A stretch of 64,000 nt of DNA. Origin: Patescibacteria group bacterium (GTDB lineage: Bacteria; Patescibacteriota; Patescibacteriia; 2-01-FULL-39-33). This document shows positions 42,450 through 61,361 of this stretch, one piece after another (positions within the stretch are counted from its first letter, which is position 1; each line of letters begins with the position of its first letter). The translations under genes and the position numbers were made by a program. The notes under the pieces were generated by a model, which did no database searches, had not been told where the DNA came from, and was given only the letters and a program-made list of their open reading frames with translations. Where the stretch lies: NCBI GenBank assembly GCA_041650895.1, contig JBAZKF010000001.1, positions 829,181-893,180 of the forward strand. The letters are read 5' to 3'.

Positions 42450-43202
42450 ATGCGTTGGCAAAAGAAACAGGCTCAGGTTGAAGGGCTAGTTTATGACGCG
42501 TTGGCAGAATTATCTGAATGTTTGTCCATTGAATTAAGCTGTTACCCCGAGGTTTGGTGGATCGGTAAAACCGTCAAGTTTAATGATCTTGGTTTGCCTA
42601 AATCATTAAAAGACGAATTTGAAATAAGGTTGGCTGGCGGTTTGAGTTATTATTTGGTAAAGCAACAGATAATAATCATTGGTAGTAAATCAACCAGACA
42701 TTCCATTTTAGAGGAATCGTCACACGCTTTTAATTTTTTGTCTTCCGGTGTCTCTTATAAAGTAGCCAATAAGAGAAGAAATGTTAAGGATTATATGGCA
42801 CTGGGGATGCTGGTTGAGTTGATGGGGATGTTAGGTGCCAGATTGCTCGGCAGTGATTGGGAAAATCCCTATGAAGATTTCCCCGATCTGATGCTATTTG
42901 ATGATAAATCGAGAGATAATATTCGACGGGTGTTGCTTGAAGCTTTAGGTGAAAATATTGATTTTGAAGAGTTTTTTATCCACCAGCAGGATTATGGCTT
43001 AGCCGATAGGATTTATGCCAAATATCTAAGCGGTGAAGTCGGCTTGGCTTGGATTAGAAAGCTGTTCCTTGATGATTTTAGCGGGCCGGATGGAGCGATA
43101 AACGCCTATACCAGATTAAGGAATAGATTTTGGCCCAAAGAATCTAGCAAGTTGCAATTGAGCGACTTGCTTTTAATTTTATTAAATTGTCCGGCCAATT
43201 AG
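42450..43202 (+). CDS. Hypothetical protein
   Basis: 250-aa ORF with AGGAGA SD, no recognisable domain. Confidence 0.5.
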   Translation: MRWQKKQAQVEGLVYDALAELSECLSIELSCYPEVWWIGKTVKFNDLGLPKSLKDEFEIRLAGGLSYYLVKQQIIIIGSKSTRHSILEESSHAFNFLSSGVSYKVANKRRNVKDYMALGMLVELMGMLGARLLGSDWENPYEDFPDLMLFDDKSRDNIRRVLLEALGENIDFEEFFIHQQDYGLADRIYAKYLSGEVGLAWIRKLFLDDFSGPDGAINAYTRLRNRFWPKESSKLQLSDLLLILLNCPAN

Positions 43203-43291: not shown

Positions 43292-43711
43292 ATGTTGAAG
43301 AATATTCTTGGCTTTGCAAGGAAGAGTCAATCCAAAAGTCAGACCAAAAAAATTTTAGTCGTAGAAGATGATTCTTTGTTGTCTAAGGTGCTGGCGGAAA
43401 CCCTGAAAAAAGAGGGTTTTGAAGTTATGGTGGTTGATAACGGCAATGACGCCGTTACTATGATCAGGAAGTTTTTGCCTCAATTGATTCTATTGGATCT
43501 GGTTATTCCTGGCATTGACGGTTTTGCAGTGCTTAAAGAGTTGAAGGCTGACGACAAATTAAGGAGTATCCCCGTAGTTATTTTGTCCAATCTTGACGAG
43601 ATTGGCGATGTTAAATCAGTTAAAGCGCTGGGTGCCGATGATTATTTCATAAAAGCCAATACGGAAATGAAGAAGATCGTTGATTATGCCAAAAGAGCAT
43701 TAAAGGCTTAA
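43292..43711 (+). CDS. Single-domain response regulator receiver (CheY-like)
   Basis: KILVVEDD...LILLDLVIPGIDGF...IPVVILSNL...LGADDYFIKA. Confidence 0.75.
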   Translation: MLKNILGFARKSQSKSQTKKILVVEDDSLLSKVLAETLKKEGFEVMVVDNGNDAVTMIRKFLPQLILLDLVIPGIDGFAVLKELKADDKLRSIPVVILSNLDEIGDVKSVKALGADDYFIKANTEMKKIVDYAKRALKA

Positions 43712-43742: not shown

Positions 43743-44126
43743 ATGGCGAAGGAAGGAACAAAGATAATTTTGATGGTTGAAGACGATGAAGTCCTGCTGA
43801 GGGCGCTGTATTTGGTTTTTCACGAAGGCGGTTTTACTATTGCCACCGCCACCGATGGCGAAACGGCCCTGCGCATGGCCGAAAGGACAAAACCAGACAT
43901 TATCTTGCTGGATTTACTGTTGCCCAAGATGAACGGTTTTGAGTTTCTTAAGAATATTAAGGCCAATGCAAATTTACGGTCTATACCGGTAGTGGTTTTG
44001 TCTAATTTGGGTGATGATGACAATGTCAAGAAAGCTAAGGATTTGGGCGCTGTAGATTATTTTATCAAGGCCGATACTGATTTATCCGTCCTGAATGATA
44101 AAGTCAAGAAAATTTTAAACACTTAA
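43743..44126 (+). CDS. Single-domain response regulator receiver (CheY-like)
   Basis: ILMVEDDE...DIILLDLLLPKMNGF...IPVVVLSNL...LGAVDYFIKA. Confidence 0.75.
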   Translation: MAKEGTKIILMVEDDEVLLRALYLVFHEGGFTIATATDGETALRMAERTKPDIILLDLLLPKMNGFEFLKNIKANANLRSIPVVVLSNLGDDDNVKKAKDLGAVDYFIKADTDLSVLNDKVKKILNT

Positions 44127-44138
44127 AAATAACAATAG

Positions 44139-44960
44139 ATGAAGAACAAATGGTTAAATCTCGTGCTGCTTTTAACCAATCGCATCTATAATCGCAAACA
44201 ACTCATCGTAGGGCAAACTGGTTTGGAGGCAGTTTATAACATTTTCCTACTTTTTCTCTGGGAGATATTTTTAGCCGTGGTCTCTTTTCCTCTTTACCTG
44301 ACTCTGAAATCGCGCGAGGTCACAGCTTATTTTGCTGACCGGGGGTCGTATGCCCAGGTGAATTTTGACTATAATTTGCGTCGCATTTTGACTGTTACCG
44401 GTGTCGGCGCTATCGCCCTGGTTTGGCTGATAAAACTATTGATTATTGTTTTAACTCCGACTATTTTCGGCCCTTTGCAGCTTTACTCTGTGGGTGATTT
44501 ACAGCCGGCCGATATTACGCAAAAAGATTTGGTGGCAACTGACACTGGCATTCAGACGGCTCGCGTAGTGAGCACCATAGCCAGACCGGAGTTGCAGCAA
44601 GTCAAAAAAATTCGAGGGGGCAATTACGTCTTTTCGGGCATCGGACAACCGCTGACTACGGTTGTTTTATTATTGTCGGACAAACAGACTGCCGTGTATA
44701 CGGCCGACGCTGATAGCCAAGGCAAATGGCAGATAGAACAGTTACAGAGTAACTTTCGTTTAAGCGAGGGCAATCATTCGGTGTTGGTTTTTAATTACGA
44801 CAAACAACAGGGGATAAGGAGCGAGACCGCGCCAACTCAATATTTTAAAGTGGCTACGAACTGGTTTGATTTAGCCGCTAAGAACGTTGATTCCTTGGCT
44901 AATTGGTCGGTGGTCATTATTATCCTGTTAGGAATTTTCTTAACCATTCTAACCCTTTAG
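44139..44960 (+). CDS. Membrane protein, miniature paralog of the adjacent giant protein (N-terminal TM region + one Ig-like domain + C-terminal TM anchor)
   Basis: N-terminus (K.KWLNL...AVVSFPLYL...RRIL.V.G.GA..L...KLL) aligns with the giant protein N-terminus. VLLLSDKQTAVYTADADSQGKWQIEQ matches the giant C-terminal Ig-like segment VIVYIHSDQALIYRTHTDSQGNWRIDH. Hydrophobic C-terminal anchor. Confidence 0.6.
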   Translation: MKNKWLNLVLLLTNRIYNRKQLIVGQTGLEAVYNIFLLFLWEIFLAVVSFPLYLTLKSREVTAYFADRGSYAQVNFDYNLRRILTVTGVGAIALVWLIKLLIIVLTPTIFGPLQLYSVGDLQPADITQKDLVATDTGIQTARVVSTIARPELQQVKKIRGGNYVFSGIGQPLTTVVLLLSDKQTAVYTADADSQGKWQIEQLQSNFRLSEGNHSVLVFNYDKQQGIRSETAPTQYFKVATNWFDLAAKNVDSLANWSVVIIILLGIFLTILTL

Positions 44961-44962
44961 CT

Positions 44963-47900
44963 ATGTCCAAACGCTGGCTAAATTTATTTTTGTCTTATTC
45001 CGGCTATGTTTTCGGTTTGCGTCAAAAAGTCGTTAAGACCGGCCAGTGGTACAAGGTTTTGCCTTTAGCTGTAGAACTATTGGCGATAGAAGTGGTGTTT
45101 GCCGTTGTTTCTTTGCCCATGTATTTGTTGGTTCCGCCGGATCGGTTGCAAGAGCAAGGGATGATTTTTCCCAGCCGGCAGAAAGTCGCTAAGCCCCTGC
45201 GAGTTTATACTGTCAGGAGGAGAATCAGTTTGGCTACCGCATCCGGTGCGGGAGGCCTTTTTGTTTTGAAAATTTTAGTTGTCGGCGTCCTATCTTTTAT
45301 TTTTCTTGGTGCTATTCAAATTTTGGCTGATACGCAAGACTGGACATTCAGCACGCCAGGTGATTACGTCTATAACCCAGCTAAGATTGAAGTTACCGGA
45401 GGTGTGGCGCGGTTGAAAAATTTGGGTGGTCTGGTTTCCGGCAGCACTGTTAATTCCGGCTTTAACACCGATGCCAGCGGTTGGACTGCCGTTCCTGGCT
45501 GGGACAATGCTCCCGGTAAGACTAATACCGCTGCCTGGCAATCCTCCGGCGGTAACTCCGGCGGCTATGTCGATATTTATTTGGATGGAAAAAAGAATAA
45601 TGATTCCGCCGGTTACTGGTACCAGAGTTTTACTACCACAGTCAACTCTCCGGATACGGCCGTTTTGAGTCTGGATTGGAAGGCGGTTTCAGTCACTGGC
45701 GCGCCCGTTTCATACGTGCTTTATGCTTTTATCGGTACTGACAGCGGCAACCCGACAATCGGCGGGGCTAATCAAGTTTGGTCCAGTGGCAATATATCCG
45801 GCGCAACTTCTTTCGCCACTACAACCCCCATTGATATAAAATCCAAAGTAACGGCGGCTGGTACTTATTACTTGAAGATAGCCGCTTATGTAAATTGCCA
45901 GGCTTCCGTTGACTGCAAGGCTACCGCCGGTTTTGATAATGTAATTGTTAATTGGTCAAAAACTACAGTCAGTTATGCTTCCGACAAGCCGACTACGACC
46001 CCGGTGAGCTCTTTAACTATGACTAAGGCCATCAGCTGGAATTCTTTCGCAGAAACGGCGACTAAAAACGGCGGTGAGATTTATTATCAATTGTCGGCCG
46101 ATAATGGCTCCAATTGGCAATACTGGAATGGTTCAGCTTGGGCGACTACTACCTTAGCGACCAATTATAATACGGCGACTGACGTCAACTCTAATATTTC
46201 CAAATTCACTACTTCTACCAATCAGATAAAATGGCGCGCTTATTTGTCCAGCGACGGTACTCAGCAGGTGATTCTGGACAATATTACTATTACTTATACC
46301 CAGAATCAGCGGCCCCAGGTGCAATCTCTGGCGCCGGCGCAGAATACGGCCTACGGCTATGTCCATGTCAATTATAACTTGCAAGATGCAGAAGGTGACC
46401 TGTCCAGTTTGACGGCTTATGAATATTCCTTGTCCGGCACTTTTGCCGATGCCGTAACTATGACCGCCTCCACCACTGATCCGGCTCATAGCGGAGTTTC
46501 CGGACTGTCGGCGTCTTCCGGCGGTACGCCCCATGTTTTTGTCTGGGATGCTCGGTCGCAGTTGGGTAATATCGCGACTACCACCTATGTCCGTTTGCGG
46601 CCTAATGACGGCATTGGCAATGGCATTTATACCACTTCCTCGGTCTTTACTGTGGACTATGTTTCTTCCACTGTTTCCAATATTTCAGTTTCTCAACCCT
46701 TAGCTACAACGACTGTTACTATTGCTTATGATTTATTTGATAATACCGCCGATAATATTTTAGTGGAAATGCAAATATCGGGCGATGATGGCAGTACCTG
46801 GACGGTGCCGTCGACGAGCGTTAGCGGAGCTGTTGGCGCGGGGGTTGCTGCCGGCAATAGCAAAGTGATTTATTGGAATGCCGGGGCTGATTATCCCAAC
46901 CAACAAAAAAATAATCTTCAAGTGCGCATCCGAGCTAAGGATAAATGGCAGAATCAGGGTGCTTACGTTTCCTCAGCTAATTTTTCTCTTGATACTTTGC
47001 CGGCGGCGATTTTGTCTGTGGCCGATCTTAAGGCTCAGCCTAATGCCGGTGATACCGCAGTTTTAATCGGCGGATCATTTACCGAGGTTAATCCCGACAC
47101 CAATCATTTTTATGTGGCGATTAATAGCGGTAGTTACAGTTCCTCTACGGCCGGGGATAGCGATACGGCTACTCCGTCTAATCAGTCTACGGCTGTCGGT
47201 ACTACTTTAGATGGCAATGACTATATTTCTAAAGTTAAGATTATTCATACTGATGACTACTCCAATGTAGGAACCAATGAAAACTTGACTCCGGATGCTG
47301 CTTATAAGTATGTTAAACCTTATACGCCATCAGCCCCGACTCTGAGTAATCCGGTTACCACGCGTCTGGATTTGACGATTAATCCGCATGTCGGCGAGGC
47401 CAGCGATGTGCCATACGCCCTGTTTGAAACGACGACTTCCAAATACGTACAAAGCGACGGTACCTTAGGTGTTAATCCGGTTTGGCAAATCATTGGTACC
47501 GGCTCCGGCCAATGGGGCAATAATACCGGTTCAGCAGGTATGGTCAGAATAACCGGTTTGTCTTCGCCGGTGGCTAATTATATTTTTAAGGTTAAATCGC
47601 GCAATCCCAGCGATTCCGGTCATGCGGCATCTTCGGAATCGTCTTTTTCCGCTTCGGCGCAAATCACCAACACCGCTCCCGGCATTGCTTTGAGCAGTTA
47701 CGCCCAAACAACCGATGGTTCGCAGTACAGCCCTATTGCCTATACGGGTACGGATGGGCAAGGTGATATTACTTACCTGAGTGCTTACGAGTATTCGGTT
47801 GACGGTTCCACCTGGCATACCATGACGGAAAAATCAGGTGTGGGCAGCAACGGCACGACCAATCTGGTATTTTTGCCAACCGGAAGTGCTTACAGTTTTG

Positions 47901-50900
47901 TTTGGGATTCGGGTGCGGATTTGTCGAATATGGAAACAACCACGGCCAAGGTCCGCTTAAGGGGCAATGACACCTTGACTGACGGCAGTTTAAGTACCTC
48001 GGCCAACTTTGTTTTAGATAATAAGGCCCCGGTCGTCTCGGCCGTAGTTGCCAGCCAAACTGCCGGCGATAGAACCATAGCAATCACTTATGATTTAACC
48101 GATGCCAATAATTCTCTGATTCAGATAGATATTTCCAGCGACGGCGGAACGACTTGGACTGTCGCCACCTCAAGCTTAACCGGCGCTGTCGGTTCGGGGG
48201 TAACGTCGGGAACTGGCAAAAGCGTTACTTGGAACGCGGGTACGGACTATAATAATCAATACAATACTAATATCATGGTAAGGATTCGGGCTCGTGATAC
48301 CTTCGGTAATCAGGGGTCTTATAGTAGTTCTGCTATTTTTACTGTTGATACGCACGCGCCGATGTTGTCTAATCTTTCCGCCAATCAAGATAGCAACGCT
48401 AACACTTTCACTTTCCATTACGACGTGTCCGAAGACGCGGGCAATATTAATACATTATTGGCGATTTCCGCCGATGGGGGGTCAACTTGGACCGTCGCCA
48501 CATCCTCGGCGTCTGGCGATTTGGGCGTAGCTGTTGCGCCGGGCACCAGTAAAACCATTACCTGGGATGCCGGCGCTGATTACAATAATCAGGAAAAGAC
48601 TAACATGCAATTTCGTTTAGTCGCGACTGATGGTTTTAGCAATAGTAGCTCTCTGGCTTCCTCTGATTTCTCTTTAGATACTAAAGCTCCGCGTATAACC
48701 AATGTTTCAGCCACTCAACCTTTGGGTGAGACCAGTGTGACAGTTTCTTATGATTTGGCCGACCAGAACAATTCCCTGGTAATGTTAGATATTTCTAACA
48801 ATAGCGGAGCAACTTGGACGGTTGCCACCTCAACCTTAAGCGGTGAAATCGGCATCGGCAGGACTCCGGGGATAGGCAAAATAGTCACTTGGAATGCGGC
48901 GGCTGATTTCCCCAATCAAAATCTGTCTACGATGCAAGTGCGAGTCAGGGCTCTGGATGTTTTTGCCAATCAATCGGCTAATGTGCCCTCAACTGATTTT
49001 TCCCTTGATACTTTGCCGCCGGCGGTTAGTGTCATAGCCAATTTGTCAACTCAGCCTTTGGCCGGAGCAACAACGACGTTGATCAGCGGTTCTTTTACCG
49101 AGGCTAACCCTAATATTAATAATTTTTATGTGGCGATTAATGGCGGTGCTTACGGATCGGCCACTATTGGGAGCGGTAATACTGCTTCACCGGCTGATCA
49201 GGCTACGGCCGTCGGCGCTACTCTGGATGGCAATGATTATGTTTCTCAAGTTAAAGTTGTCCATACCGACGATTACGGTCAATCTGTAACCAATGAGAAT
49301 AATTCGCCTAATTCGGCTTACAAATATGTGAAGCCCTACACGCCGTCGGCGCCGACCGTCAATAACCCCAGCGTCGGCACCGTAGATGTTTTAATCAATA
49401 AAAATCCGGCGGAAATAGACGGTTTGGAATACGCTATTTATGAAAGTTCCCAGAACAAATATGTGCAAAGCGATGGAACCTTAGGTATCAGCCCCGTTTG
49501 GCAGGTGATTGGCACCGGTTTTTTTCAATGGGGATTTTACTCGGGCGTAAGCGGCAAAATTAACATTAGTGGTTTAACTCTTGATTCTTACTACTATCAA
49601 TTTCAGATTAAATCGCGTAATAGTAGCGACGCCTCTCATGCCGCCTCCAGCGATAGTACTTTGTCCAGCGGCGCTTCCTCGGTTAACCAGTCGCCGACTA
49701 TTGTCATTGATTCAGTCGCCCAAACGACTGACGGCACTAAGTATGTGGTTATCAACTATACCGGTTTTGATTTGGAAAGCGAAACCACCACCTTAGTTAC
49801 CTATCAGTATTCTACTGATAATGCTATTTGGCACACCATGACTGAAAAGTCCGGTGTGGGCTCGGACGGCAAGATTGGTTTATCTTTTATTTCTGTCGGA
49901 ACAGCGCATGATTTTATGTGGGATGTTGGTGTGGATTTTCCCAACACCGAAGATGAAACGGTTTACGTCAGGTTACAGGCTGATGACAGTACTAGTAGCG
50001 GCGGAGTAACGGCTTCTTCGGCATTTATTGTTGATACCAAAAACCCCATAACAGCTTCGGTAACCGCCAGCCAGGATGCCAATTCAAATAATGTGTCGGT
50101 GAGTTATAATTTGACTGACTTATCCGATTCTTATATTGAGTTTGATGTTTCATCCGATAGCGGATCAACCTGGACTGTCGCAACTTCTACGGCTTCCGGA
50201 GATGTCCATGATAATGTCACGCCGGGTAGCGGCAAGGCTATCAGTTGGAATCCAGGTATGGATTATTCCGGCCAGGAATCAGGCACGATGAGGGTGCGAG
50301 TGGGCGCCAGAGACAATTTTGGCAATAGCGGATCCTTGGTTTCATCTGTTAATTTTGCCGTTGATAGTAAGGCCCCGGTTTTTGCCAATATTTCCGCGGC
50401 GCAGGTCGTTAGCAGCAGTTTAGTGTCTATAAGTTATGATTTTAGCGATGCCAACAGTTCTGTTGTGGCTATGGATATTTCATCGGACGGAGGCGGTTCT
50501 TGGGATGTTGCTTCCTCAAGTGTTAGTGGTGCCATTGGCGCAGGCATAACAACCGGCAATAGCAAAATTATTATTTGGGACGCCGGAGCGGATTTCCCTA
50601 ATCAGCAGGTTAATAACATGCAGATTCGTCTGCGAGCCGTTGACGCTTACGCCAATGCGACCGGCAATGTCGGTTCCAATTTGTTTGCCATTAATACCCA
50701 AGCCCCAGTGATTAATACTGTAACCGCAGAACAAGTCGTGGGGTCCGATAATGTCGTCATAACTTATAACCTGTTTGACAGCGATAATGTAGTTATCAGT
50801 GTGGGTATTTCCAGCGATGGTGGCGCCACTTGGACCGTAGCTACCACTACCTTGACAGGCGATGTTGGTTACGGAGTCGCACCAGGACTGGGCAAAACAA

Positions 50901-53900
50901 TTAATTGGAATCCGGGAGTTGATTTCAACAGCCAACAGAATGGCAGTATGAAGGTTCGTATCCGTGGCACCAATACTTACGGTAATAGTAGCGCTTATGC
51001 CGTTTTGGTTGACACTTTTAGCGTGGACACTCTGGCCCCGACGATTTTGACGATTGCGGATTTGACTGCTCAGCCACTTGCCGGCGATACGAGCGCGACT
51101 GTTAGCGGGTCGTTTACCGAGGCCAATCCAACCTCTAATGAGTTTTTAGTCGCTTTCAGCAGTGATGTCTATTCGGCTACTACCACCGGAGAAAGCAATA
51201 CGGCGACTCCGGCTGATCAGGCGGTGCCGGCAAGCGGGGCGCTTACTGGTCATGATTACATTTCTAAAGTTAAGCTGGTAGAAACCGATAATTACGGCCA
51301 TACAAGAATAAACGAGAATACTTCTCCTACAGCGAGTTACAAATACGTCAAACCGTATACGCCGGGAGCGCCGACGGTTAATAATCCGCAGAATACTACA
51401 GTGGATGTAACAATTAATTCGGCTTTCGGCGAGGCTAGCGATGTGCCTTATGTCATTTATGAGGTTTCCACCGGACAATACGTGCAGAGCAATGGCACTT
51501 TGGGTGTTAGCGCTGTCTGGCAGACGCTCGGCACCGGCGCCGGCCAATGGGGCCAGGGGAGCGGTATTAGCGGTCAAGTTACTATTAGCGGTTTGTTCTC
51601 GCCGGTGGCTAATTATAGTTTTAAGATCAAGTCACGCAACCCGAGCGATGCGGCACATCTGACGACTTCCGAATCTGATTTTTCTACAATAACGGGAATT
51701 GCTAATACTGCTCCGGCAATTAATATTTCAAGCGCAACTCAACAAGCCAGTGGCGGTTATGTGTTAATCAATTATATCGGTACGGATGCGCAAAATGATA
51801 CTAATGATTTAACTGTTTTTGAATATTCCATTGATAACGCCAATTGGCAGGTTATGACCGAAAAATCGGGGGTGGGTTCAAACGGTACCTCCAGCTTGAT
51901 TTTCTCTTCGGTTGGCACGGCTTACATTTTTGCTTGGGATATAGCGACTGATTTGCCTAATCAGGAGAATTCCACAGTTTATGTACGCTTAAAGTCATCT
52001 GATACTTTGGCTGACAGTAACTTGGCGGTGTCCTCGGCTTTTTATGCTGATACTTTGGGGCCGGTTATTTCCAATATTGATTTAACGCAAACGCCAGGTA
52101 CGGGATTGGCCGTAATTATTTATGACTTGATCGATAATTCCGGAGCTAGCAATACTGTTAGTTTATTAATTTCCAATGATGGCGGTTTGACTTATACTGT
52201 GCCCGTTACTACGGCCAGTGGCGATGTCGGTAATGATGTTACGGCTGGCGTCGGCAGGAGTATTAGTTGGAATCCGCAAATTGACTTGGCCAATCAGGAG
52301 AATTCTGCGGTTAAAGTCAAACTTCAAGGTGCGGATCGCTATGGCAATGCCGGTTTAATTTCTATTTCTGACAATTTTACCGTTGATACCAAGGGGCCGG
52401 TGGTAAGCGGTGTTTCCGCCGGCCAATCAGCCGGTACGACGGATGTGGTCATAAATTATAACTTGGCTGATATTACGCCGGCCGGTAATCTGGTTGAATT
52501 TAATATTTCTGATGATGGTGGGGCTACTTGGACAGTATCTACAACCACTAGAAGCGGACAAATCGGTTCCGGTCAAACCATCGGGGCAAAGGCGTTTATT
52601 TGGTCGGCCGGTACGGATTTCGTTGGTCAAGATTTATCCAGTATGAGAGTTCGCGTCCGCGCTAAGGATTATTTCGGTAATCAAGGCGCTTATGTTGCCT
52701 CTGGTAATTTTGCTTTAGATACCAAAGCCCCGGTTATTTCTGGCGTCTCCGCCAGTCAAATCGCCGGCACAGATAGCGTAGCGGTTAGTTATGATTTAGG
52801 AGAAAATGCTGATGTTGCCTGGGATATCTCTAGTGATGGCGGTTTGACTTGGACGGTTATTAAAACTACAGCCGTTGGGGATTTGGGCGCGGTAACAGCA
52901 GGCAATAATAAATTAGTCACCTGGAATACCGGCGTTGATTTTATTAACCAAGAGAATTCCCATATGCGGGTCCGTTTCAGCGGCACGGATAGTTTTGGCA
53001 ATGTCAGCACTTATTATGAATCGGCTGATTTTTCAGTTGATACAGGGGCGCCCTTGGGACTTGCTTCCTTGAGTAAATTTTCGGAAACCGCCACAACCAT
53101 TACTATGAATTGGCAGACGGCAACTGATGCGAATTTTAATCACTATGAATTATGGCATGGCGCAACGGAAAGCGATGTGGTAAATCGCACGGGCACAGCC
53201 GACAAATGGAGCGTAATTGATGATGTTAATTTGTCTAACTCCTTAACCATATCGACGGTTATTACCGGTTTGAATATTACCAATAATTATTATGTTAAGA
53301 TTTGGGCCATAGATGATTATGGCAACGAAGCAACGGTTGCCCAGCTTAACGTTTTTGCCCCAGTAACTCCGCCGGTTGTTTCGCCTGTAATCCCGCCGGT
53401 AGTCGGCGGTGGCGCTATTTTGGTGCCCGATACAATTGCGCCGGTTAAACCACTTTTGAACTCGTTGGATTCACCAACTAACAGCACAAGGATTGCCATC
53501 GGCGGTTTGTCTGAGCCGGGCTCAAACATCGACTTGTTTGATAATGGCGTTTTGTTTGCCCGGCTTAATAACAGCGCCGATAGCGGCGGCAGGTTCAGTC
53601 AGATTTTTAATTTTTCGTCAGGCAATCATTCCTTAACTGTTCGGGCAACTGATAGATCAGGCAATATCAGCCAGTTGTCCGATCCAGTCAACTTGCTTAT
53701 TATCGGCGTGGCCCCGGCCGCCCCGATAATCTTAAACCCGATTAATAATTCGGCTATTGCGGAGGCAACTCCGACAATCACTGGCGTAACTGAACCGTTA
53801 GGCGAAGTGCTTATTGCTTTGGACGGTCGAAGTAGGTTTACGGTGACAGCAGATTTATCCGGCGCTTGGAATTTTAAGTTGCCTAGCGCCTCGGCTCTAG

Positions 53901-54508
53901 TGGATGGTCGCCATACTATTAGCGTTACTGTTCGCGATCAAGCCGGCAATGTCAGTAATCCAACCGTCATAAGTATTAATAAAGTTGTTGCCTTACCGGC
54001 GTCAGTCACTCCGATTATAACCGTGGCCGGCATTACGCCTATTCAGCCGGTTCCCACGGCTCAATTAGTGGAATTGAACGCCCAAGCGGTGGAATTGGCC
54101 GGCATACCGGTGCCGCAAGTCACTAATATACAAACCATAGCTGTCGGCGATACTTTAAGTTTCTCCGGCACCTCTTTGCCTAATCAAGATGTCATCGTCT
54201 ATATTCATAGCGATCAAGCCTTGATTTATCGCACTCATACTGATAGTCAGGGCAACTGGCGCATTGACCATTCGCAAGACATTACAGAGTTGTCTCCTGG
54301 CCAGCATACGATTTTTGCCGTCGCTCTGGACTCCACGGCGCAAATTAAGAGCCGACCCAGTCCGGTTAGCACCTTTACTGTTAGAAGAAATTTTTGGGTG
54401 ATGATTTATCGTTACTTAAATTGGCAGACAACGGTCATAACCTTAGTCATTTTAGTGGCTACTATTTTCTGGCTTTATCGGGCCAGAAAGAGACAGTTGA
54501 TCGGTTAA
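44963..54508 (+). CDS. Giant (3181 aa) membrane-anchored repeat protein: N-terminal 2-TM region, ~10 Asp-box (SxDxGxTW) beta-sandwich modules, FN3-like and Ig-like domains, C-terminal TM anchor
   Basis: ATG at 44963 (MSKRWLNL) 3 nt after the upstream stop. Ten SxDGGxTWTV motifs. Three ~2-kb super-repeats starting near 46990, 49000 and 51030, each containing YKYVKPYTPSAPT. C-terminal FN3 then Ig-like segments, then hydrophobic anchor + RARKRQ. Confidence 0.85.
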   Translation: MSKRWLNLFLSYSGYVFGLRQKVVKTGQWYKVLPLAVELLAIEVVFAVVSLPMYLLVPPDRLQEQGMIFPSRQKVAKPLRVYTVRRRISLATASGAGGLFVLKILVVGVLSFIFLGAIQILADTQDWTFSTPGDYVYNPAKIEVTGGVARLKNLGGLVSGSTVNSGFNTDASGWTAVPGWDNAPGKTNTAAWQSSGGNSGGYVDIYLDGKKNNDSAGYWYQSFTTTVNSPDTAVLSLDWKAVSVTGAPVSYVLYAFIGTDSGNPTIGGANQVWSSGNISGATSFATTTPIDIKSKVTAAGTYYLKIAAYVNCQASVDCKATAGFDNVIVNWSKTTVSYASDKPTTTPVSSLTMTKAISWNSFAETATKNGGEIYYQLSADNGSNWQYWNGSAWATTTLATNYNTATDVNSNISKFTTSTNQIKWRAYLSSDGTQQVILDNITITYTQNQRPQVQSLAPAQNTAYGYVHVNYNLQDAEGDLSSLTAYEYSLSGTFADAVTMTASTTDPAHSGVSGLSASSGGTPHVFVWDARSQLGNIATTTYVRLRPNDGIGNGIYTTSSVFTVDYVSSTVSNISVSQPLATTTVTIAYDLFDNTADNILVEMQISGDDGSTWTVPSTSVSGAVGAGVAAGNSKVIYWNAGADYPNQQKNNLQVRIRAKDKWQNQGAYVSSANFSLDTLPAAILSVADLKAQPNAGDTAVLIGGSFTEVNPDTNHFYVAINSGSYSSSTAGDSDTATPSNQSTAVGTTLDGNDYISKVKIIHTDDYSNVGTNENLTPDAAYKYVKPYTPSAPTLSNPVTTRLDLTINPHVGEASDVPYALFETTTSKYVQSDGTLGVNPVWQIIGTGSGQWGNNTGSAGMVRITGLSSPVANYIFKVKSRNPSDSGHAASSESSFSASAQITNTAPGIALSSYAQTTDGSQYSPIAYTGTDGQGDITYLSAYEYSVDGSTWHTMTEKSGVGSNGTTNLVFLPTGSAYSFVWDSGADLSNMETTTAKVRLRGNDTLTDGSLSTSANFVLDNKAPVVSAVVASQTAGDRTIAITYDLTDANNSLIQIDISSDGGTTWTVATSSLTGAVGSGVTSGTGKSVTWNAGTDYNNQYNTNIMVRIRARDTFGNQGSYSSSAIFTVDTHAPMLSNLSANQDSNANTFTFHYDVSEDAGNINTLLAISADGGSTWTVATSSASGDLGVAVAPGTSKTITWDAGADYNNQEKTNMQFRLVATDGFSNSSSLASSDFSLDTKAPRITNVSATQPLGETSVTVSYDLADQNNSLVMLDISNNSGATWTVATSTLSGEIGIGRTPGIGKIVTWNAAADFPNQNLSTMQVRVRALDVFANQSANVPSTDFSLDTLPPAVSVIANLSTQPLAGATTTLISGSFTEANPNINNFYVAINGGAYGSATIGSGNTASPADQATAVGATLDGNDYVSQVKVVHTDDYGQSVTNENNSPNSAYKYVKPYTPSAPTVNNPSVGTVDVLINKNPAEIDGLEYAIYESSQNKYVQSDGTLGISPVWQVIGTGFFQWGFYSGVSGKINISGLTLDSYYYQFQIKSRNSSDASHAASSDSTLSSGASSVNQSPTIVIDSVAQTTDGTKYVVINYTGFDLESETTTLVTYQYSTDNAIWHTMTEKSGVGSDGKIGLSFISVGTAHDFMWDVGVDFPNTEDETVYVRLQADDSTSSGGVTASSAFIVDTKNPITASVTASQDANSNNVSVSYNLTDLSDSYIEFDVSSDSGSTWTVATSTASGDVHDNVTPGSGKAISWNPGMDYSGQESGTMRVRVGARDNFGNSGSLVSSVNFAVDSKAPVFANISAAQVVSSSLVSISYDFSDANSSVVAMDISSDGGGSWDVASSSVSGAIGAGITTGNSKIIIWDAGADFPNQQVNNMQIRLRAVDAYANATGNVGSNLFAINTQAPVINTVTAEQVVGSDNVVITYNLFDSDNVVISVGISSDGGATWTVATTTLTGDVGYGVAPGLGKTINWNPGVDFNSQQNGSMKVRIRGTNTYGNSSAYAVLVDTFSVDTLAPTILTIADLTAQPLAGDTSATVSGSFTEANPTSNEFLVAFSSDVYSATTTGESNTATPADQAVPASGALTGHDYISKVKLVETDNYGHTRINENTSPTASYKYVKPYTPGAPTVNNPQNTTVDVTINSAFGEASDVPYVIYEVSTGQYVQSNGTLGVSAVWQTLGTGAGQWGQGSGISGQVTISGLFSPVANYSFKIKSRNPSDAAHLTTSESDFSTITGIANTAPAINISSATQQASGGYVLINYIGTDAQNDTNDLTVFEYSIDNANWQVMTEKSGVGSNGTSSLIFSSVGTAYIFAWDIATDLPNQENSTVYVRLKSSDTLADSNLAVSSAFYADTLGPVISNIDLTQTPGTGLAVIIYDLIDNSGASNTVSLLISNDGGLTYTVPVTTASGDVGNDVTAGVGRSISWNPQIDLANQENSAVKVKLQGADRYGNAGLISISDNFTVDTKGPVVSGVSAGQSAGTTDVVINYNLADITPAGNLVEFNISDDGGATWTVSTTTRSGQIGSGQTIGAKAFIWSAGTDFVGQDLSSMRVRVRAKDYFGNQGAYVASGNFALDTKAPVISGVSASQIAGTDSVAVSYDLGENADVAWDISSDGGLTWTVIKTTAVGDLGAVTAGNNKLVTWNTGVDFINQENSHMRVRFSGTDSFGNVSTYYESADFSVDTGAPLGLASLSKFSETATTITMNWQTATDANFNHYELWHGATESDVVNRTGTADKWSVIDDVNLSNSLTISTVITGLNITNNYYVKIWAIDDYGNEATVAQLNVFAPVTPPVVSPVIPPVVGGGAILVPDTIAPVKPLLNSLDSPTNSTRIAIGGLSEPGSNIDLFDNGVLFARLNNSADSGGRFSQIFNFSSGNHSLTVRATDRSGNISQLSDPVNLLIIGVAPAAPIILNPINNSAIAEATPTITGVTEPLGEVLIALDGRSRFTVTADLSGAWNFKLPSASALVDGRHTISVTVRDQAGNVSNPTVISINKVVALPASVTPIITVAGITPIQPVPTAQLVELNAQAVELAGIPVPQVTNIQTIAVGDTLSFSGTSLPNQDVIVYIHSDQALIYRTHTDSQGNWRIDHSQDITELSPGQHTIFAVALDSTAQIKSRPSPVSTFTVRRNFWVMIYRYLNWQTTVITLVILVATIFWLYRARKRQLIG

Positions 54509-54545: not shown

Positions 54546-57530
54546 ATGACTTGGCCAATTTTTAATAAAAAACTTTCTTGTCCCACTCCAGAAAGATTAA
54601 TAGTCGGTGACGAAATTAATTATCGGATATTGTTCAATGCTACAGCCGATGCTATTGTGATTGCTGATTTATCAGGCAAAATCATCGATGCTAATCTCGC
54701 CGCTTGTAGCTTGTTCGGTTATGACAAAAAAGAATTTTTTAGATTATCCGTTAATCAATTACACCCGGCCGATGCTGTCAAGGAAACTTTAAAAATTTTC
54801 AGGCAATTGTCTAAAGGCAATAAGCTTGATAAGAATATTGAATTGCAAATAATTACCAAGGATAAGAAAGTTAAAATCGTTTCCGCCAGCTTCGGTAGAA
54901 TAAAAATTGATTCTCATTATTGTTTGATTGCCTTTTTTCGCGATATTACCAAAGCAAAGGAAAGCGAAAAACGCTATAAGATATTGACTGAGGTGGCCCA
55001 TGACAGCATTTATTTGGTTAATAGAAGCGGTATAGTGACGTATGTTAATTATTTCGGAGCCGGGCAGTTCAAGGCCAAGCCTGAAGACATTATTGGCAAG
55101 AATATCAAAAACTTATTCCCGCCAACTGTGGCCCAACGGCAAATGGCCAACATTATTAAGGTATTTCGTAGTGGTCAGCCGATTTATCAAGAGGGTCTAT
55201 CATTTTTTCCTTCAGGAGAAGCATGGTTGAGTACGCAACTAACTCCAATCAATGATCAATCGGGCCGAGTGGAAAGCGTTATGGGCCTATCTCGTAATAT
55301 TTCCAAGGTTAAGGAGTCGGAGATAGCCATAAAAAACTATTCTTCTTTATTGGATTCAATCACTGCTACATCGCAGGAGGGTATTTTGGTGATTGATCAA
55401 CGGGGTAAGGTCACTTTTTATAATAAAAATTTTTTGAAAATGTGGAAGATACCGCAAGAACTGGTGAAAAGTAAAGACGATAAAAAACTATTGTCTTTTG
55501 TTATGAGTCAATTGTCCGATGCCAAGGAATTTTTGGTTAAAGTGGATTATCTTTATCGGCATCCGGCAAATAAAAGTTCCGATACTATTTATTTTAAAGA
55601 TGGCCGAGTTTTTGATCGTTTGTCTTTACCGCAAAAAATTGACGGTAAAATTGTGGGCCGAGTTTGGCGTTTCACTGATATTACTAAGGATATAAAAGTC
55701 CGAGAAAGTTTAGTTAGGTCAGAGCAGAAATACCGCCGACTTTTTGAAGCGGCCAAGGATGGTATTTTGATTCTTAATGCTAAAACTGGAGAAATTGAAG
55801 AGGTTAATCCGTATTTGATTGAGATGCTGGGTTATAGCAGGGGAGAATTTTTACAGAAGAAATTGTGGGAAATCGGGTTATTTAAGGATATAGCGGCTTC
55901 CAAGAAATCTTTTAAAATTTTAAAGAAGAAGAAGTATGTTCATTATGAGAATTTGCCTTTAAGAACTAAGTCTGGCAAGTCGATCAGTGTGGAATTTGTC
56001 AGTAATGTCTATAATATTGACCATACCAAAGTCGTTCAGTGCAATATTCGCAATATTACCAGTCGTCACCAAATAGAAATGGAGTTGATTAACAGCGAAG
56101 ATCGTATGCGGGCGATTTATGAAAATAGCCCGGTACCGATTGTCCTGGTCGGCTTAGACAATAAATTTATTAGCGCCAACCCGGCCGCTGTAAGATTGTG
56201 GGGTTATTCCGAGGAGCGACTTAAAAAAATGACTTTTGCCGATATTACTCATCCTGATGAAATTAAAAGGGACGTAGAAAAAGTCAAGCTTCTGCTTAAA
56301 GGCAAAATTCCTATCTATAATGTGGATAAACGTTATATTAGGAAAGACAAGAAAATCATTTATGGCCGAGTCAGCGCTACTTTAATTAAAGATAATAGCG
56401 GGGAGCCATTGTATTTTTTAACGATTATTGAGGATATTACCCAGCACAAAAAGTGGGAGGAAGAAATCAAGCAATCGGAAGAAAGATACAGTAATCTGGT
56501 GGAGAATAGCAATGACGCCGTGATTTTAATTCAGGAAGGCATAGTTAAATACGCCAATCCGGCCATAAAAAATATTACCGGTATGGTCCCTTCGGATGTT
56601 GTCGGCAAACCCATGATTGATTTCATCGCCCCCCAGTATAAAAGTTCAGTTGTTTCAAATTATCAGCGCCGCATGCGAGGAGAGAAGGTGGAAACCCGCT
56701 ATGAGTTCGCTGTTATTGACAACCATGGCAAAGCTATACCGGTAGAGACAAACAGTTCGGTGATTATTTTTGAAGGCCGGCCGGCTGACATGGCTATTTT
56801 ACGCGACATCAGCAAAGCCAAAGAAGTTGATCGGTTGAAATCGGAGTTTATATCCATGTCTTCGCATCAATTGCGGACGCCTTTAACCGGTATCAAGTGG
56901 TTTGGAGAACTACTGTTAAAAGAAAAAATCGGCAAATTGAATACGGAACAGCGCGATTTTGTTGAACAGATTTATCATAGTAATGAACGGATGATTAAAC
57001 TGGTTAATGACTTGCTGGATGTTTCGCATATTGAGACGGGGCGTAAATTTGTTTTGAAAAGGAAATCAAGCGACTTGCGTTTGGCTTTTAGCCGCGCCGT
57101 AGAAGACCAAAATTTGGCCGCCGCCAAAAATAAAATCAGCTTTGTTTTGGGTCGTGGTTTTGATGAAAAAATCATCGCCGTTTTTGATTTTGAAAAAATT
57201 GTCCAGATGTTGAATAATTTAATCAGCAATGCCTTGAAGTATTCTCCGGAGAAAACTAAGGTAACTTTTGATTGTCAGCGCCAAGGAAATTATTGGCACT
57301 TTTCTATTGCCGATCAAGGTTATGGCATACCGGCCTACCAGCAACATCGGATATTTGAAAGGTTTTTCAGGGCGGATAACATTAGGGGAGTGGCTCCGGA
57401 AGGCACGGGTTTGGGATTATATATCGCTCGAGGCATAGTTGAAGCTCATGGCGGCAGGATTTGGTTTGATTCCAAAGAGAATAAGGGCACGACTTTCTAT
57501 TTTACTTTGCCGATTTATTCTGCTAAATAA
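54546..57530 (+). CDS. Cytoplasmic multi-PAS sensor histidine kinase (994 aa)
   Basis: At least five PAS/PAC-like modules, HisKA H-box (SHQLRTPLTGIKW), HATPase_c G-boxes (GTGLGLYIARGIVEAHGG), no TM helix. Confidence 0.85.
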   Translation: MTWPIFNKKLSCPTPERLIVGDEINYRILFNATADAIVIADLSGKIIDANLAACSLFGYDKKEFFRLSVNQLHPADAVKETLKIFRQLSKGNKLDKNIELQIITKDKKVKIVSASFGRIKIDSHYCLIAFFRDITKAKESEKRYKILTEVAHDSIYLVNRSGIVTYVNYFGAGQFKAKPEDIIGKNIKNLFPPTVAQRQMANIIKVFRSGQPIYQEGLSFFPSGEAWLSTQLTPINDQSGRVESVMGLSRNISKVKESEIAIKNYSSLLDSITATSQEGILVIDQRGKVTFYNKNFLKMWKIPQELVKSKDDKKLLSFVMSQLSDAKEFLVKVDYLYRHPANKSSDTIYFKDGRVFDRLSLPQKIDGKIVGRVWRFTDITKDIKVRESLVRSEQKYRRLFEAAKDGILILNAKTGEIEEVNPYLIEMLGYSRGEFLQKKLWEIGLFKDIAASKKSFKILKKKKYVHYENLPLRTKSGKSISVEFVSNVYNIDHTKVVQCNIRNITSRHQIEMELINSEDRMRAIYENSPVPIVLVGLDNKFISANPAAVRLWGYSEERLKKMTFADITHPDEIKRDVEKVKLLLKGKIPIYNVDKRYIRKDKKIIYGRVSATLIKDNSGEPLYFLTIIEDITQHKKWEEEIKQSEERYSNLVENSNDAVILIQEGIVKYANPAIKNITGMVPSDVVGKPMIDFIAPQYKSSVVSNYQRRMRGEKVETRYEFAVIDNHGKAIPVETNSSVIIFEGRPADMAILRDISKAKEVDRLKSEFISMSSHQLRTPLTGIKWFGELLLKEKIGKLNTEQRDFVEQIYHSNERMIKLVNDLLDVSHIETGRKFVLKRKSSDLRLAFSRAVEDQNLAAAKNKISFVLGRGFDEKIIAVFDFEKIVQMLNNLISNALKYSPEKTKVTFDCQRQGNYWHFSIADQGYGIPAYQQHRIFERFFRADNIRGVAPEGTGLGLYIARGIVEAHGGRIWFDSKENKGTTFYFTLPIYSAK

Positions 57531-57547: not shown

Positions 57548-57934
57548 ATGATGAAAAAAATGATGAAAAAATTGTTAGTCATTGATGATGAACCGATCGT
57601 GCTTAAAGCTTTGTCGTCACAGTTTGATGCCAAAGAGATTGAGGTGTTGCTTGCCAAGGATGGCGCTGAAGGTTTAAAATTGGCTAAGAAAGAAAAGCCT
57701 GATTTAATCTTATTGGACCTGGTAATGCCTAAAATGGACGGATTGGAAATGTTAGCTAAGTTGCGCAAAGATAAATGGGGCAAGAAAGCGGAAGTAGTGA
57801 TTCTGAGTAACTTGAGTGATTCGGCCAAGGTAGCTCAAGCTGTTGCTTTAGGGACCTTTGAATATTTGGTTAAGGTGGACTGGAATGTGGCTGATGTGGC
57901 CACTAAGGTGAAAAAGAAGCTGGGATTAAAATAA
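57548..57934 (+). CDS. Single-domain response regulator receiver (CheY-like)
   Basis: KLLVIDDE...DLILLDLVMPKMDG...VILSNL, 128 aa. Confidence 0.75.
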   Translation: MMKKMMKKLLVIDDEPIVLKALSSQFDAKEIEVLLAKDGAEGLKLAKKEKPDLILLDLVMPKMDGLEMLAKLRKDKWGKKAEVVILSNLSDSAKVAQAVALGTFEYLVKVDWNVADVATKVKKKLGLK

Positions 57935-58080
57935 TTAAATTAAGCATTGTTTAGTCAACTCGGAAGAAATTTTCGGGTTGACTTTTAGTTATCCCCAGAG
58001 CAGATTATGCGACTTGTTTTTGAATGGCAAAGCATGTTATAATATATTAATAACTAACCATAAAACATTGGTTAAAAAAT

Positions 58081-58443
58081 ATGGTCGCTAAGAAAAGAAT
58101 TCTCATCGCCGAGGATGAGAAATCCATGGCTAACGCCTTGGAACTAAAACTGAATAAATCCGGCTTTGAAGCTAAGGCCGTTTATGACGGCGAGCAGGCT
58201 TTGGCCACTGTGACTGAAGGTGGCTATGACTTGATGCTGTTGGATTTGATGATGCCGAAATTAGATGGTTTTGGCGTATTGGAAGGCATAAAAAAGAAGA
58301 ATCTTAAGATCAAAGTTATTATTACTTCTAATTTGTCTCAAGAAGAAGATATCAAGAAGGCCAAAGATTTGGGGGCTATTGACTACATCGTTAAGTCGGA
58401 TACGCCTATTCAGGCGATCGTAGAAAAAATTAAAAGTCTTTGA
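58081..58443 (+). CDS. Single-domain response regulator receiver (CheY-like)
   Basis: RILIAEDE...DLMLLDLMMPKLDGF...VIITSNL...LGAIDYIVK, 120 aa. Confidence 0.75.
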   Translation: MVAKKRILIAEDEKSMANALELKLNKSGFEAKAVYDGEQALATVTEGGYDLMLLDLMMPKLDGFGVLEGIKKKNLKIKVIITSNLSQEEDIKKAKDLGAIDYIVKSDTPIQAIVEKIKSL

Positions 58444-58474: not shown

Positions 58475-60121
58475 ATGAATTTAGACAACAAACAACTCAG
58501 AGCCATCCTGGTTGATGGTGATTATTTGTCCGCCGGCGATTGGCAGAAAGCCGAGGCCGTTGCGGCAAAAAAAGAAATCGACATAATCGATTATCTTTTG
58601 CGTGAAGGTATTTTGAATAAGGATTTATTCGGCCAAGCCATGGCCGAATATTTTAGTTTGCCTTATGCGGATTTGAATTCCAATATGCCGATAAAGGAGC
58701 AGGTTTTGGCTCTGCCTGAAGATATCGCCAGAGAATATCGTTTGGTGGTGTATTCCGCCGACAGTAAGACCGTGGTAGTAGCGACAGATCAGCCGGATAA
58801 TCAGAAATTGCCAGAATTATTAAAAAAAGTAATACCAAACCGGCAGGTTAAATTAGCTTATTCTTTAACCGAGGATATTGATGCCGCTTTCGTCAATTAT
58901 CGCAAGACATTAGAAACTCGTTTTGCCGCCATTATTAAGAAAAGCCGACAGGTGGTGCCGGAAATAGTTGATGAAATTTTTGCCGATGCCGTTACTTTTA
59001 AGGCTTCAGATATACATTTTGAACCAACGGAAGCAGAGGTGCTGGTGCGATTCCGCGTAGATGGCGTCTTACAAGATGCCGGGCACATCCCTAAGGAATT
59101 CTATGGCAATATTGTCAATCGTATCAAAGTAAAGAGCCACTTGCGCATTGATGAGCATTTTGCCGCTCAAGACGGCAGTTTGAATTATGTCAGCGACGGT
59201 CTGGTTACTGACATGCGCGTGTCCGTAGTGCCGACTATTGAGGGGGAAAAAATCGTCATGCGTCTTTTGTCGCATTACGTTCAGGGTTTTGATTTGAATG
59301 ATCTGGGTTTATCAGTTAAAGATCAAACTAATTTTAATGTGGCGGCGCAAAAACCGTTTGGTATGATTCTTGTTGTCGGTCCAACCGGTTCAGGCAAGAG
59401 CACCACCTTGTACGCCGTTTTAAAACAACTTAATCAACCGGCAGTAAATATCACTACCATTGAAGATCCGGTGGAATACCGGGTGCCAGGCATTAATCAG
59501 ATCCAAGTTAATTCTCAGACTGGCTTGACTTTCGCCCGCGGTTTGCGTTCCATCGTTCGCCAGGATCCTGATATTATCCTAGTTGGGGAGATTCGCGATT
59601 TGGAGACCGCCGAGATTGCAGTCAATGCCGCTTTGACCGGCCATTTGTTGCTTTCCACTTTCCACTCCAATGACGCGGCGACCGGCATTCCGCGTTTACT
59701 GGATATGAAGATTGAGCCTTTTTTGCTCGCTTCCACCCTGCAAGCGATTTTGGCGCAACGCTTGGTGAGGAAGATTTGCGACCATTGTCGTGTCAGCTAT
59801 ACGATTTCTCCCGCTCAATTAACCAAAGAGTATCCCTTAGCCGCTAAATATTTTCCTCGTCGCAATCTGACCTTATATCGCGGTAAGGGTTGCCCGGCCT
59901 GTAATAATACCGGTTATAAGGGGCGGACCGCTATTTTTGAGTTGATTTTGATCACGCCGGAGATGCAGGAATTAGTTATGAAACATCCGTCGTCTCGGGA
60001 AATTTGGCAGTTGGCTAGCCGTCAAGGGTCGCGGCCGCTCTTTGAAGATGGAATGGAAAAGGTCAAAGACGGCGTTACCACTATGGATGAAATCTTCAGA
60101 GTGGCTGAACCGCCACAGTAA
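58475..60121 (+). CDS. pilB: Type IV pilus assembly ATPase PilB / GspE family
   Basis: N-terminal GspII_E-type domain, Walker A GPTGSGKST, Asp/His boxes, tetracysteine CDHC...CPAC. Confidence 0.9.
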   Translation: MNLDNKQLRAILVDGDYLSAGDWQKAEAVAAKKEIDIIDYLLREGILNKDLFGQAMAEYFSLPYADLNSNMPIKEQVLALPEDIAREYRLVVYSADSKTVVVATDQPDNQKLPELLKKVIPNRQVKLAYSLTEDIDAAFVNYRKTLETRFAAIIKKSRQVVPEIVDEIFADAVTFKASDIHFEPTEAEVLVRFRVDGVLQDAGHIPKEFYGNIVNRIKVKSHLRIDEHFAAQDGSLNYVSDGLVTDMRVSVVPTIEGEKIVMRLLSHYVQGFDLNDLGLSVKDQTNFNVAAQKPFGMILVVGPTGSGKSTTLYAVLKQLNQPAVNITTIEDPVEYRVPGINQIQVNSQTGLTFARGLRSIVRQDPDIILVGEIRDLETAEIAVNAALTGHLLLSTFHSNDAATGIPRLLDMKIEPFLLASTLQAILAQRLVRKICDHCRVSYTISPAQLTKEYPLAAKYFPRRNLTLYRGKGCPACNNTGYKGRTAIFELILITPEMQELVMKHPSSREIWQLASRQGSRPLFEDGMEKVKDGVTTMDEIFRVAEPPQ

Positions 60122-60133
60122 AGAGATTATTTT

Positions 60134-61360: not shown

Positions 61361-61361
61361 T

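Follow-up and report, generated by a model that had tools for sequence, protein, structure and literature searches.

A predicted giant surface protein of Patescibacteria with Asp-box Ig-like modules, its mini-paralog and a conserved gene cassette

A single gene that takes up about 1% of a genome of about 1 Mb, and that is nearly universal in several lineages (labelled in the records as Buchanan-, Magasanik-, Uhr- and Falkowbacteria), raises the question of what its product is and what it may do for the cell. The gene lies in a stretch of 64,000 nucleotides (nt), hereafter the window, from a Patescibacteria group bacterium (assembly GCA_041650895.1, contig JBAZKF010000001.1, positions 829,181 to 893,180), where it occupies 44963..54508 (+) and encodes 3181 amino acids (aa) plus a stop codon; coordinates below are window positions and all genes discussed are on the plus strand. 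An initial annotation, made from the letters alone, had described the product (hereafter the giant) as a protein of Asp-box modules and super-repeats that is embedded in the membrane at both ends. Patescibacteria account for a large share of bacterial diversity, and those in culture grow attached to other cells; yet their means of holding on to partners or sensing them are, type IV pili aside, almost unknown.

The giant appears to be a real and conserved cell-surface protein of an ultra-small, Buchananbacteria-like member of the Patescibacteria (CPR), with some 26 probable beta-sandwich domains. The reading that we favour, with moderate confidence, is that of a very long membrane-tethered surface fibre, an adhesin or spacer, that works with a mini-paralog and is under two-component control. 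More specifically, an N-terminal membrane module would be followed by a jelly-roll head (H1) and an Asp-box-bearing domain (H2), and then by about 20 Ig-like sandwiches forming a stalk; how long the stalk is would depend on the copy number of a super-repeat of six domains (A, B, C, D, D, D) that can expand. After the stalk would come an FN3 domain, three Ig domains of the Big_13 type and, at the C-terminus, a transmembrane (TM) helix with a basic tail in the cytoplasm; the ~26 domains of the protein would give a contour of ~100 nm. The Asp-box hairpin, which each such Ig module carries at its C/C' turn, probably has a structural role and stiffens the module or its junction to the next. By means of its glycan-binding-type head and simple reach, the fibre would most likely make contact with host cells, particles or the envelope of its own cell. 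A 273-aa paralog with the same membrane ends and no ectodomain would work with the fibre, perhaps in a complex. The giant would be co-transcribed with two CheY-like receivers and, here, a cytoplasmic PAS kinase, and fibre production or state may therefore come under two-component control.

Asp-box modules, super-repeats and the protein family

The reading frame is intact. It is listed as an uninterrupted open reading frame (ORF) at 44903..54508 (+) opening with TTG; its first ATG, at 44963, is positioned 2 nt past the stop of the upstream ORF and yields the 3181-aa protein. More than 60 homologs conserve the N-terminus encoded from this ATG (MSKRWLNLF), and the start chosen in the initial annotation is therefore the right one. 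Because the frame is unbroken and those homologs are collinear with it, a pseudogene or an assembly artefact was rejected. An identical protein has been deposited under the title 'MAG: Ig-like domain-containing protein [Patescibacteria group bacterium]'. Its composition is rich in Ser, Thr, Asn and Gly and includes only two Cys. Pfam and NCBIfam searches with the whole protein and with single A, B, C and H1 domains left about 85% of it without a model, the families recovered being Big_13, Big_6, Ca_tandemer and a sub-threshold fn3. Searches of PDB sequences with the whole giant and with a module profile found no relative past the bare Asp-box motif.

The motifs themselves are far in excess of chance. 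Seven Asp-boxes fit S.D.G.TW strictly and ten fit a relaxed form, against 0.004 and 0.11 expected from composition and a maximum of 3 in 2000 shuffles. They are placed as one module (aa 606) followed by three triplets (1058/1169/1278, 1730/1840/1950 and 2404/2516/2623), with spacings of 107-112 aa inside the triplets and 452-454 aa between them. The four motif strings quoted in the initial annotation all occur, at aa 606, 1058, 1169 and 1278. That annotation had placed all ten modules in three super-repeats; nine are indeed inside, and the remaining one (aa 565-676) precedes the repeats. An eleventh Asp-box, SADNGSNW at aa 378, is found within a different domain, H2.

The ten Asp-box (D) modules are each 107-112 aa long, are bounded by D-T-x-A-P and share 40-50% identity in alignment. 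A hidden Markov model (HMM) of the D module also detects four modules that have no motif (aa 448-564, 901-1018, 1575-1690 and 2247-2362), and these C modules are the 'YEYS...W..MTEKSGVGS' units. Profile comparison by hhalign relates C to D with a probability of 98.4% (E 5e-15), indicating that the C modules are homologous to D and bringing the related modules to 14 in total. Each super-repeat can thus be written as A, B, C, D, D, D. By the same method any kinship of A with D is remote (probability 37%), and B is without relation to D at the sequence level. B reads as FN3-like by eye; fn3 gave no match to it, and a match to CRLF2-like_D2 is at chance level and present in one of three copies (E 0.16).

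Fragment BLAST and alignment place the borders of the ~672-aa super-repeats at aa 677-1348 (46991..49006), 1349-2021 (49007..51025) and 2022-2692 (51026..53038). Their starts at nt 46991, 49007 and 51026 agree with the ~670-aa units that the initial annotation had seen near nt 46990, 49000 and 51030. Its further claim, that the copies have diverged at synonymous sites, also holds: identity among them is 48-49% for protein, 55-58% for DNA and 40-44% at third positions, exact matches between the DNA copies reach 20 nt at most, and TRF did not find a tandem repeat in the DNA. Each super-repeat is closest to the repeat at the same position in other species (62-71%) rather than to its own paralogs (50-58%). 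The super-repeats are thus positionally orthologous across species, and the triplication is therefore older than the separation of those lineages.

The full architecture is shared by 65 homologs, all of them in Patescibacteria, whose lengths fall into classes with 6, 14, 18, 20 or 26 C/D-type modules. The wider family was surveyed by a profile search across 1.84 billion representatives, combined with local HMM annotation. The N- and Ct-modules, which are the N-terminal membrane module and the last Big_13-type domain, are both present in 87 of the 146 best representatives; in the window they occur together only in the giant and in the ORF just upstream of it. The family follows the grammar N-[H1]-H2-D-D-([A-B-D...])n-FN3-Ct, with n from 0 to ~7 and lengths of 446-5686 aa. 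As judged from these architectures, the super-repeat appears to act as an expandable length cassette, the length being tuned by gain or loss of its six domains. The N-module ... Ct-module proteins of Patescibacteria are defined here as a new family; literature searches found no published description of it. The Asp-box Ig module, A, B, the H1 head and the N-module are all domain families for which Pfam holds no model.

Predicted folds of the modules and the head

The fold of the Asp-box modules was addressed with an AF2-type model of one D module, built from a 103-sequence alignment of family modules. The model has a pLDDT of 96.9 and a pTM of 0.88 and describes a self-contained seven-stranded sandwich, in which the Asp-box residues S40, D42, G44, T46 and W47 shape the turn after strand 33-40; S40, G44 and W47 are invariant or nearly so across D modules. 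Foldseek returned no E value better than 1e-3, the nearest structures being the SiiE BIg domain (top), SrpA and sulfite dehydrogenase (E 0.02). The Asp-box modules are therefore predicted with high confidence to be FN3/PKD-like Ig sandwiches that carry a single Asp-box hairpin each, and not propeller blades. This bears out the suspicion in the initial annotation that the fold differs from the sialidase propeller, and the structure prediction of one module that it had proposed did return a defined beta-sandwich. In the profile searches that it had also proposed, Big_13 and Big_6 matched, fn3 remained below threshold and no BNR or sialidase family was matched.

An Asp-box within an Ig-like sandwich is not new. 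Sulfite oxidase and chitobiase have singlet Asp-boxes in their Ig-like domains, as reelin does in its jelly-rolls, and the motif often supports domain-domain contacts and rod-like superstructure (Quistgaard and Thirup, PMC2716378). The motif is equally familiar from sialidases, and a propeller enzyme or lectin of the sialidase/BNR type along the length of the protein was considered. There are 10-11 good Asp-box motifs and a PDB profile search does match sialidases, across the ~12-residue motif only (E 0.01-0.2). The motifs are, however, 107-112 aa apart, whereas a blade takes up 40-70 aa, and each module is predicted to be complete in itself. Neither the FRIP motif nor its [FY]RIP form was found in the giant, and no Pfam or NCBIfam model of the BNR/sialidase family matched it. 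Because of the module spacing and the fold the propeller was rejected, and we regard it as highly improbable.

A model of aa 1-564 (pLDDT 84, ~90 in the beta domains) predicts three helices, 3-25, 29-56 and 90-121, of which the second and third are separated by a disordered loop, and then three beta domains. The first of these is the H1 head (aa 123-336; 45329..45970), a domain without a Pfam family. Foldseek places it among jelly-rolls of the CBM, MAM and gingipain-adhesin type, with matches to PTPRK MAM-Ig-FN (E 1.8e-6), the EphA2 ectodomain, reelin, the gingipain Kgp K1/K3 'cleaved adhesin' domains, CBM28, CBM11 and CBM4 (E 1e-6 to 1e-4, TMt ~0.5). At the level of the fold, H1 would thus be a binding-type jelly-roll. 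The sole Cys pair of the giant, C312 and C318 (nt 45896-45916, NCQASVDCK), is located within H1; some homologs are without it, and the two residues may form a disulfide in an extracellular loop.

The second beta domain, H2 (aa 337-447; 45971..46303), is a beta-sandwich with the Asp-box SADNGSNW and a weak match to Reelin_subrepeat-B, and it is found in every cargo-bearing family member. Copies of it, ~50% identical, are also repeated in large, unrelated proteins that carry Laminin_G_3 or F5/8 type C domains (P0067, P0069, P0071, P0073 and P0074); H2 is therefore a mobile module, one that has no Pfam model of its own. The third is C0 (aa 448-564; 46304..46654), an Ig-like homolog of D without an Asp-box that was recognised by the D-module HMM and hhalign. 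It is followed by D0 (aa 565-676; 46655..46990), the first Asp-box Ig-like module, and by the three super-repeats. Beyond the repeats come a terminal FN3-like domain (aa 2693-2800; 53039..53362), for which the Pfam fn3 score of 22.4 bits is under the 25-bit cut-off, and a Pro/Val-rich linker with three Big_13-type Ig domains (aa 2801-3140; 53363..54382). The Pfam and NCBIfam matches to Big_13 (48 bits), Ca_tandemer (53.6 bits) and Big_6 are confined to aa ~2825-3140.

Membrane ends, the mini-paralog and the gene cassette

Hydropathy identifies three hydrophobic segments in the giant, at aa 29-58, 95-122 and 3152-3173. The first two belong to the N-terminal membrane module (aa 1-122; 44963..45328, ending just before 45329), which was delimited by hydropathy, AF2 secondary structure, invariant columns and charge counts. 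It consists of a conserved amphipathic helix (aa 3-25), a first hydrophobic helix (aa 29-56), in which E43 and P52 are invariant, a basic disordered loop (aa 57-94) with invariant R86, and a second hydrophobic helix (aa 95-122), in which K103 and A122 are invariant. Its signature throughout the family is a W-L-N helix, a helix with an invariant Glu and SLP.Y, a basic loop with RR and a helix with an invariant Lys. At the other end, the conserved motif LN(W/L)xTT precedes the C-terminal TM helix (aa 3152-3173), which is followed by RARKRQ; helix and basic tail (ARKRQLIG) are encoded at 54416..54505, and both, including the +3 charge of the tail, are conserved family-wide. No LPXTG, NPXTG, PEP or PGF sorting motif was found in the giant.

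The charges around the N-terminal helices bear on their orientation. The N-tail carries +5 and the interhelix loop +8, and the sequence past the second hydrophobic helix (TM2) is acidic. Since the loop before it is basic and the sequence after it acidic, TM2 is clearly oriented inside-to-outside. The N-tail is basic as well, which leaves three options: a membrane crossing by helix 3-25 too, a re-entrant first hydrophobic helix, or translocation of the N-tail. Just after TM2, at aa 116-129 (nt 45308-45349), there is a conserved LLGAxxLLA|[AD][TS]Q.W.F sequence in which A122 is invariant, and the LLA|[AD][TS]Q within it could be a signal-peptidase I site.

Such a site would permit a different arrangement, in which TM2 is an internal signal cut by signal peptidase I after LLA (A122). 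The N-terminal ~122 residues would be left behind as a separate small membrane protein, the C-terminus would be the single anchor, and the H1-H2 head would be carried ~100 nm out, at the distal tip of the fibre, as in a classical adhesin. The L-L-A|[A/D]-[T/S]-Q sequence is invariant or nearly so in giants, A-x-A-like sites (AKA|D, QAA|T) occupy this position in distant family members, and the basic loop before TM2 and the acidic sequence after it resemble the n-region of a signal peptide and a mature N-terminus. The putative binding head would also be placed where adhesins usually carry it. On the other hand, Leu at the -3 position is tolerated rather than typical, and the N-module, with its four invariant charged or Pro residues (E43, P52, R86 and K103) and its amphipathic helix, shows much stronger conservation than a signal peptide calls for and is retained in the mini-paralog. 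This conservation exceeds even what a passive anchor requires. We consider this cleaved arrangement possible, and it is the most probable of the alternatives to the favoured fibre.

If the site is left uncut, the fibre would be a loop tethered at both ends with its head near the membrane, a better fit to a role as envelope spacer or sensor than to classical adhesion. The initial annotation had both ends embedded in the membrane; the hydrophobic helices at both ends and their conservation agree with this, and the basic N-tail and loop and the LLA site speak against it. Anchoring at both ends is plausible; in its favour are the strong conservation of both ends and the existence of a paralog that consists of just those ends.

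This paralog, not remarked upon in the initial annotation, is the upstream 273-aa ORF (44139..44960), in which hardly anything separates an N-module from the C-terminal Ig domain and TM helix that follow it. Its first ~115 residues align to aa 1-120 of the giant (BLASTP E 3e-6) and its last ~125 to aa 3048-3169, which include Ct (E 6e-12); HMMs built from giants only recognise both parts (N 1.6e-15, Ct 1e-19). These matches identify it, newly here, as a paralog of the two ends of the giant. It has more than 200 homologs of its own, almost all of 272-275 aa.

Also new are the invariant Glu and Lys that the alignments place inside the membrane helices of both paralogs, at E42/K99 in the mini-paralog and at E43 (nt 45089-45091) and K103 (nt 45269-45271) in the giant family. 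Both paralogs further have SLP.Y and RR in common, and the N-terminal helix has a conserved polar face in both families. Charges at such positions hint that the residues pair, or that the helices do more than anchor.

The two membrane proteins are encoded within a larger cassette. Upstream of the mini-paralog are two receiver-only (CheY-like) response regulators (43292-43711 and 43743-44126; Pfam Response_reg, E 1e-22 to 1e-23), to which NCBIfam gives no specific name. Downstream of the giant come a soluble histidine kinase with five PAS domains and no TM segment (54546-57530), a third receiver-only regulator (57548-57934) and, beyond it, a terminator-like hairpin (57953-57983). Together with another such hairpin at 43146-43171, this brackets in the window the order regulator, regulator, mini-paralog, giant, PAS kinase, regulator. 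The mini-paralog and this context of regulators and kinase, which the initial annotation had missed, carry most of what is novel at the locus.

To what extent the arrangement is conserved was examined in 6 loci reached through giant homologs and 41 reached through the mini-paralog in species-representative genomes, with record titles naming Buchanan-, Magasanik-, Uhr-, Falkow-, Parcu- and Paceibacteria. The two regulators are directly upstream of the mini-paralog in all 46 of 46 loci, and a large N...Ct protein is directly 3' of it in 34 of the 36 mini-selected loci. The order regulator, regulator, mini-paralog, giant is thus kept in nearly all of ~40 species-level genomes, a further new observation. 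The genes of the cassette overlap or are set close together, and outside the cassette the flanks of different loci are unrelated. A histidine kinase is found inside the flanks in 19 of the 47 loci, many contigs being short. Nine of the cassette-bearing records from metagenome-assembled genomes (MAGs) are titled 'uncultured Gammaproteobacteria bacterium' (TPA; L012, L020, L022, L026, L028, L032-L034 and L044), and these bins are probably mislabelled. CheY-like genes have been found ~two-fold enriched in sediment-attached ultra-small MAGs (PMC9938205). The linkage of the giant to the mini-paralog and two CheY-like receivers makes it a testable candidate for regulated attachment.

The same linkage may be read differently, with fibre and mini-paralog as a surface sensor that either feeds signals to the adjacent two-component proteins or carries out their output. 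Force or ligand binding on the ectodomain would be passed through the charged helices to the cytoplasmic helix and loop, or phosphorylated receivers would dock at the latter to switch the fibre from the inside. The strict retention of regulators, mini-paralog and giant while the outer flanks differ is consistent with this, as are the soluble nature of the five-PAS kinase, which is without a membrane sensor of its own, and the invariant Glu and Lys and polar helix face noted above. Receivers without an output domain must, moreover, act by binding a partner. The argument is one from association, however; the kinase accompanies just 19 of 47 loci, and the operon linkage may be mere co-regulation of an adhesin. 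We consider a sensor unlikely. Equally speculative is a more specific version, in which the shared membrane chassis of the two paralogs is itself a signalling device. This chassis would comprise a cytoplasmic amphipathic helix, the two helices with the invariant Glu and Lys, the basic loop and, at the C-terminus, the Ig domain with its TM helix. The two receivers would dock on its cytoplasmic face and either couple the soluble PAS kinase to the deployment or conformation of the ~100-nm fibre or report mechanical or host contact inward. If true, this would be an integrin-like or LapD-like inside-out or outside-in system, specific to ultra-small episymbiotic bacteria.

An envelope scaffold or spacer, as opposed to an adhesin, is somewhat easier to entertain than the sensor, though still doubtful. 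The giant would then be a doubly anchored loop or arch that organises or spaces the cell wall or S-layer, with the mini-paralog as its base and its CBM-like head on the cell's own envelope glycans near the membrane. Such an arrangement would account for two hydrophobic, conserved ends, for a mini-paralog made only of these and for a head that adjoins the N-terminal membrane module; the super-repeat copy number falls into discrete, ruler-like classes, and the cassette is nearly universal in its lineage, as a housekeeping part of the envelope would be. Against this, the family is limited to few lineages of Patescibacteria, two genomes are without the giant at the locus, and the five-fold spread in length between related species fits adaptation to a partner better than a fixed envelope dimension.

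Several observations weigh against the fibre that we nevertheless favour. The topology of the N-module is ambiguous, the basic N-tail and basic loop being a misfit to a simple two-TM hairpin, and if this module stays in the membrane then the head adjoins the membrane and not the tip, an odd position for the binding domain of an adhesin. The matches of the head are fold-level only (9-16% identity, TMt ~0.5) and identify no ligand. Two loci, L037 and L039 (OW818634.1, a chromosome of 895,742 bp), keep the two regulators and the mini-paralog without an adjacent giant, a histidine kinase following in L039, and synteny with the regulators does not show them acting on the fibre. Finally, type IV pilus genes neighbour the giant in this window only and are absent beside it in L001-L006; because PilB and PilC adjoin the giant only here, a functional link to the neighbouring pilus was dropped.

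Relation to known systems and neighbouring features

Among known proteins, the closest parallels to the Asp-box modules are the C-terminal dimerisation domain of sulfite oxidase and sulfite dehydrogenase (Mo-co_dimer), the C-terminal domain of chitobiase and the reelin subrepeats, all of which likewise have one Asp-box hairpin per beta-sandwich. In contrast to these, the giant repeats the module in tandem ten times, with four motif-less copies, in what would be a surface fibre, and it has no molybdenum enzyme or glycosidase attached. The D module also differs from the sulfite oxidase type in that Pfam has no model for it and no solved structure matches its sequence significantly. The weak Pfam matches of this kind were limited to Mo-co_dimer (21.8 bits) and Reelin_subrepeat-B (15.6 bits). 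The former (PF03404) falls short of its 22.7-bit cut-off and concerns one module only, which amounts to a resemblance of the modules to the Asp-box Ig domains of sulfite oxidase rather than to demonstrated homology. A word-indexed search with the D-module profile returned 9 short fragments only and is no gauge of the spread of D outside the family.

As a whole, the giant resembles the type I secretion system (T1SS)/RTX adhesins of the BapA/LapF/SiiE type: these too are multi-thousand-residue rods in which Ig-like domains follow one another in tandem and one end has a region of the ligand-binding type, and the BapA family shares Big_13 / Ca_tandemer C-terminal domains with the giant at 27-33% identity. 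Unlike the BapA/SiiE type, the giant is without a T1SS signal, RTX (GGxGxD) repeats or LPXTG, and it ends in a TM helix followed by a basic tail. Pfam named no T1SS component among the ORFs scanned at 39951-61360, and those beyond 61360 are pilin-like, as judged by sequence only. A hydrophobic stretch with a basic tail recalls LPXTG surface proteins, but LPXTG or NPXTG is present nowhere in the giant. Features that set it apart from giant adhesins in general are its TM segments at both ends, its hierarchical six-domain super-repeat, its mini-paralog and its receiver-only regulators.

MpIBP and Gram-positive giants such as Ebh are comparable giant Ig-repeat adhesins. The gliding 'leg' Gli349 of the wall-less Mycoplasma mobile, with ~3,200 residues, an N-terminal membrane segment and many ~100-aa repeats, extends outward to bind surface glycans and is offered as an analogy only; no gliding machinery genes were seen in the window.

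Downstream of the cassette the window holds a further set of genes. A fourth receiver-only regulator (58081-58443) is located ahead of a type IV pilus cluster (58475-63812), which comprises a PilB-like ATPase (T2SSE), a PilC-like platform protein (T2SSF) and five small ORFs with N-terminal GF(T/N)L(V/I)E prepilin-type signals.

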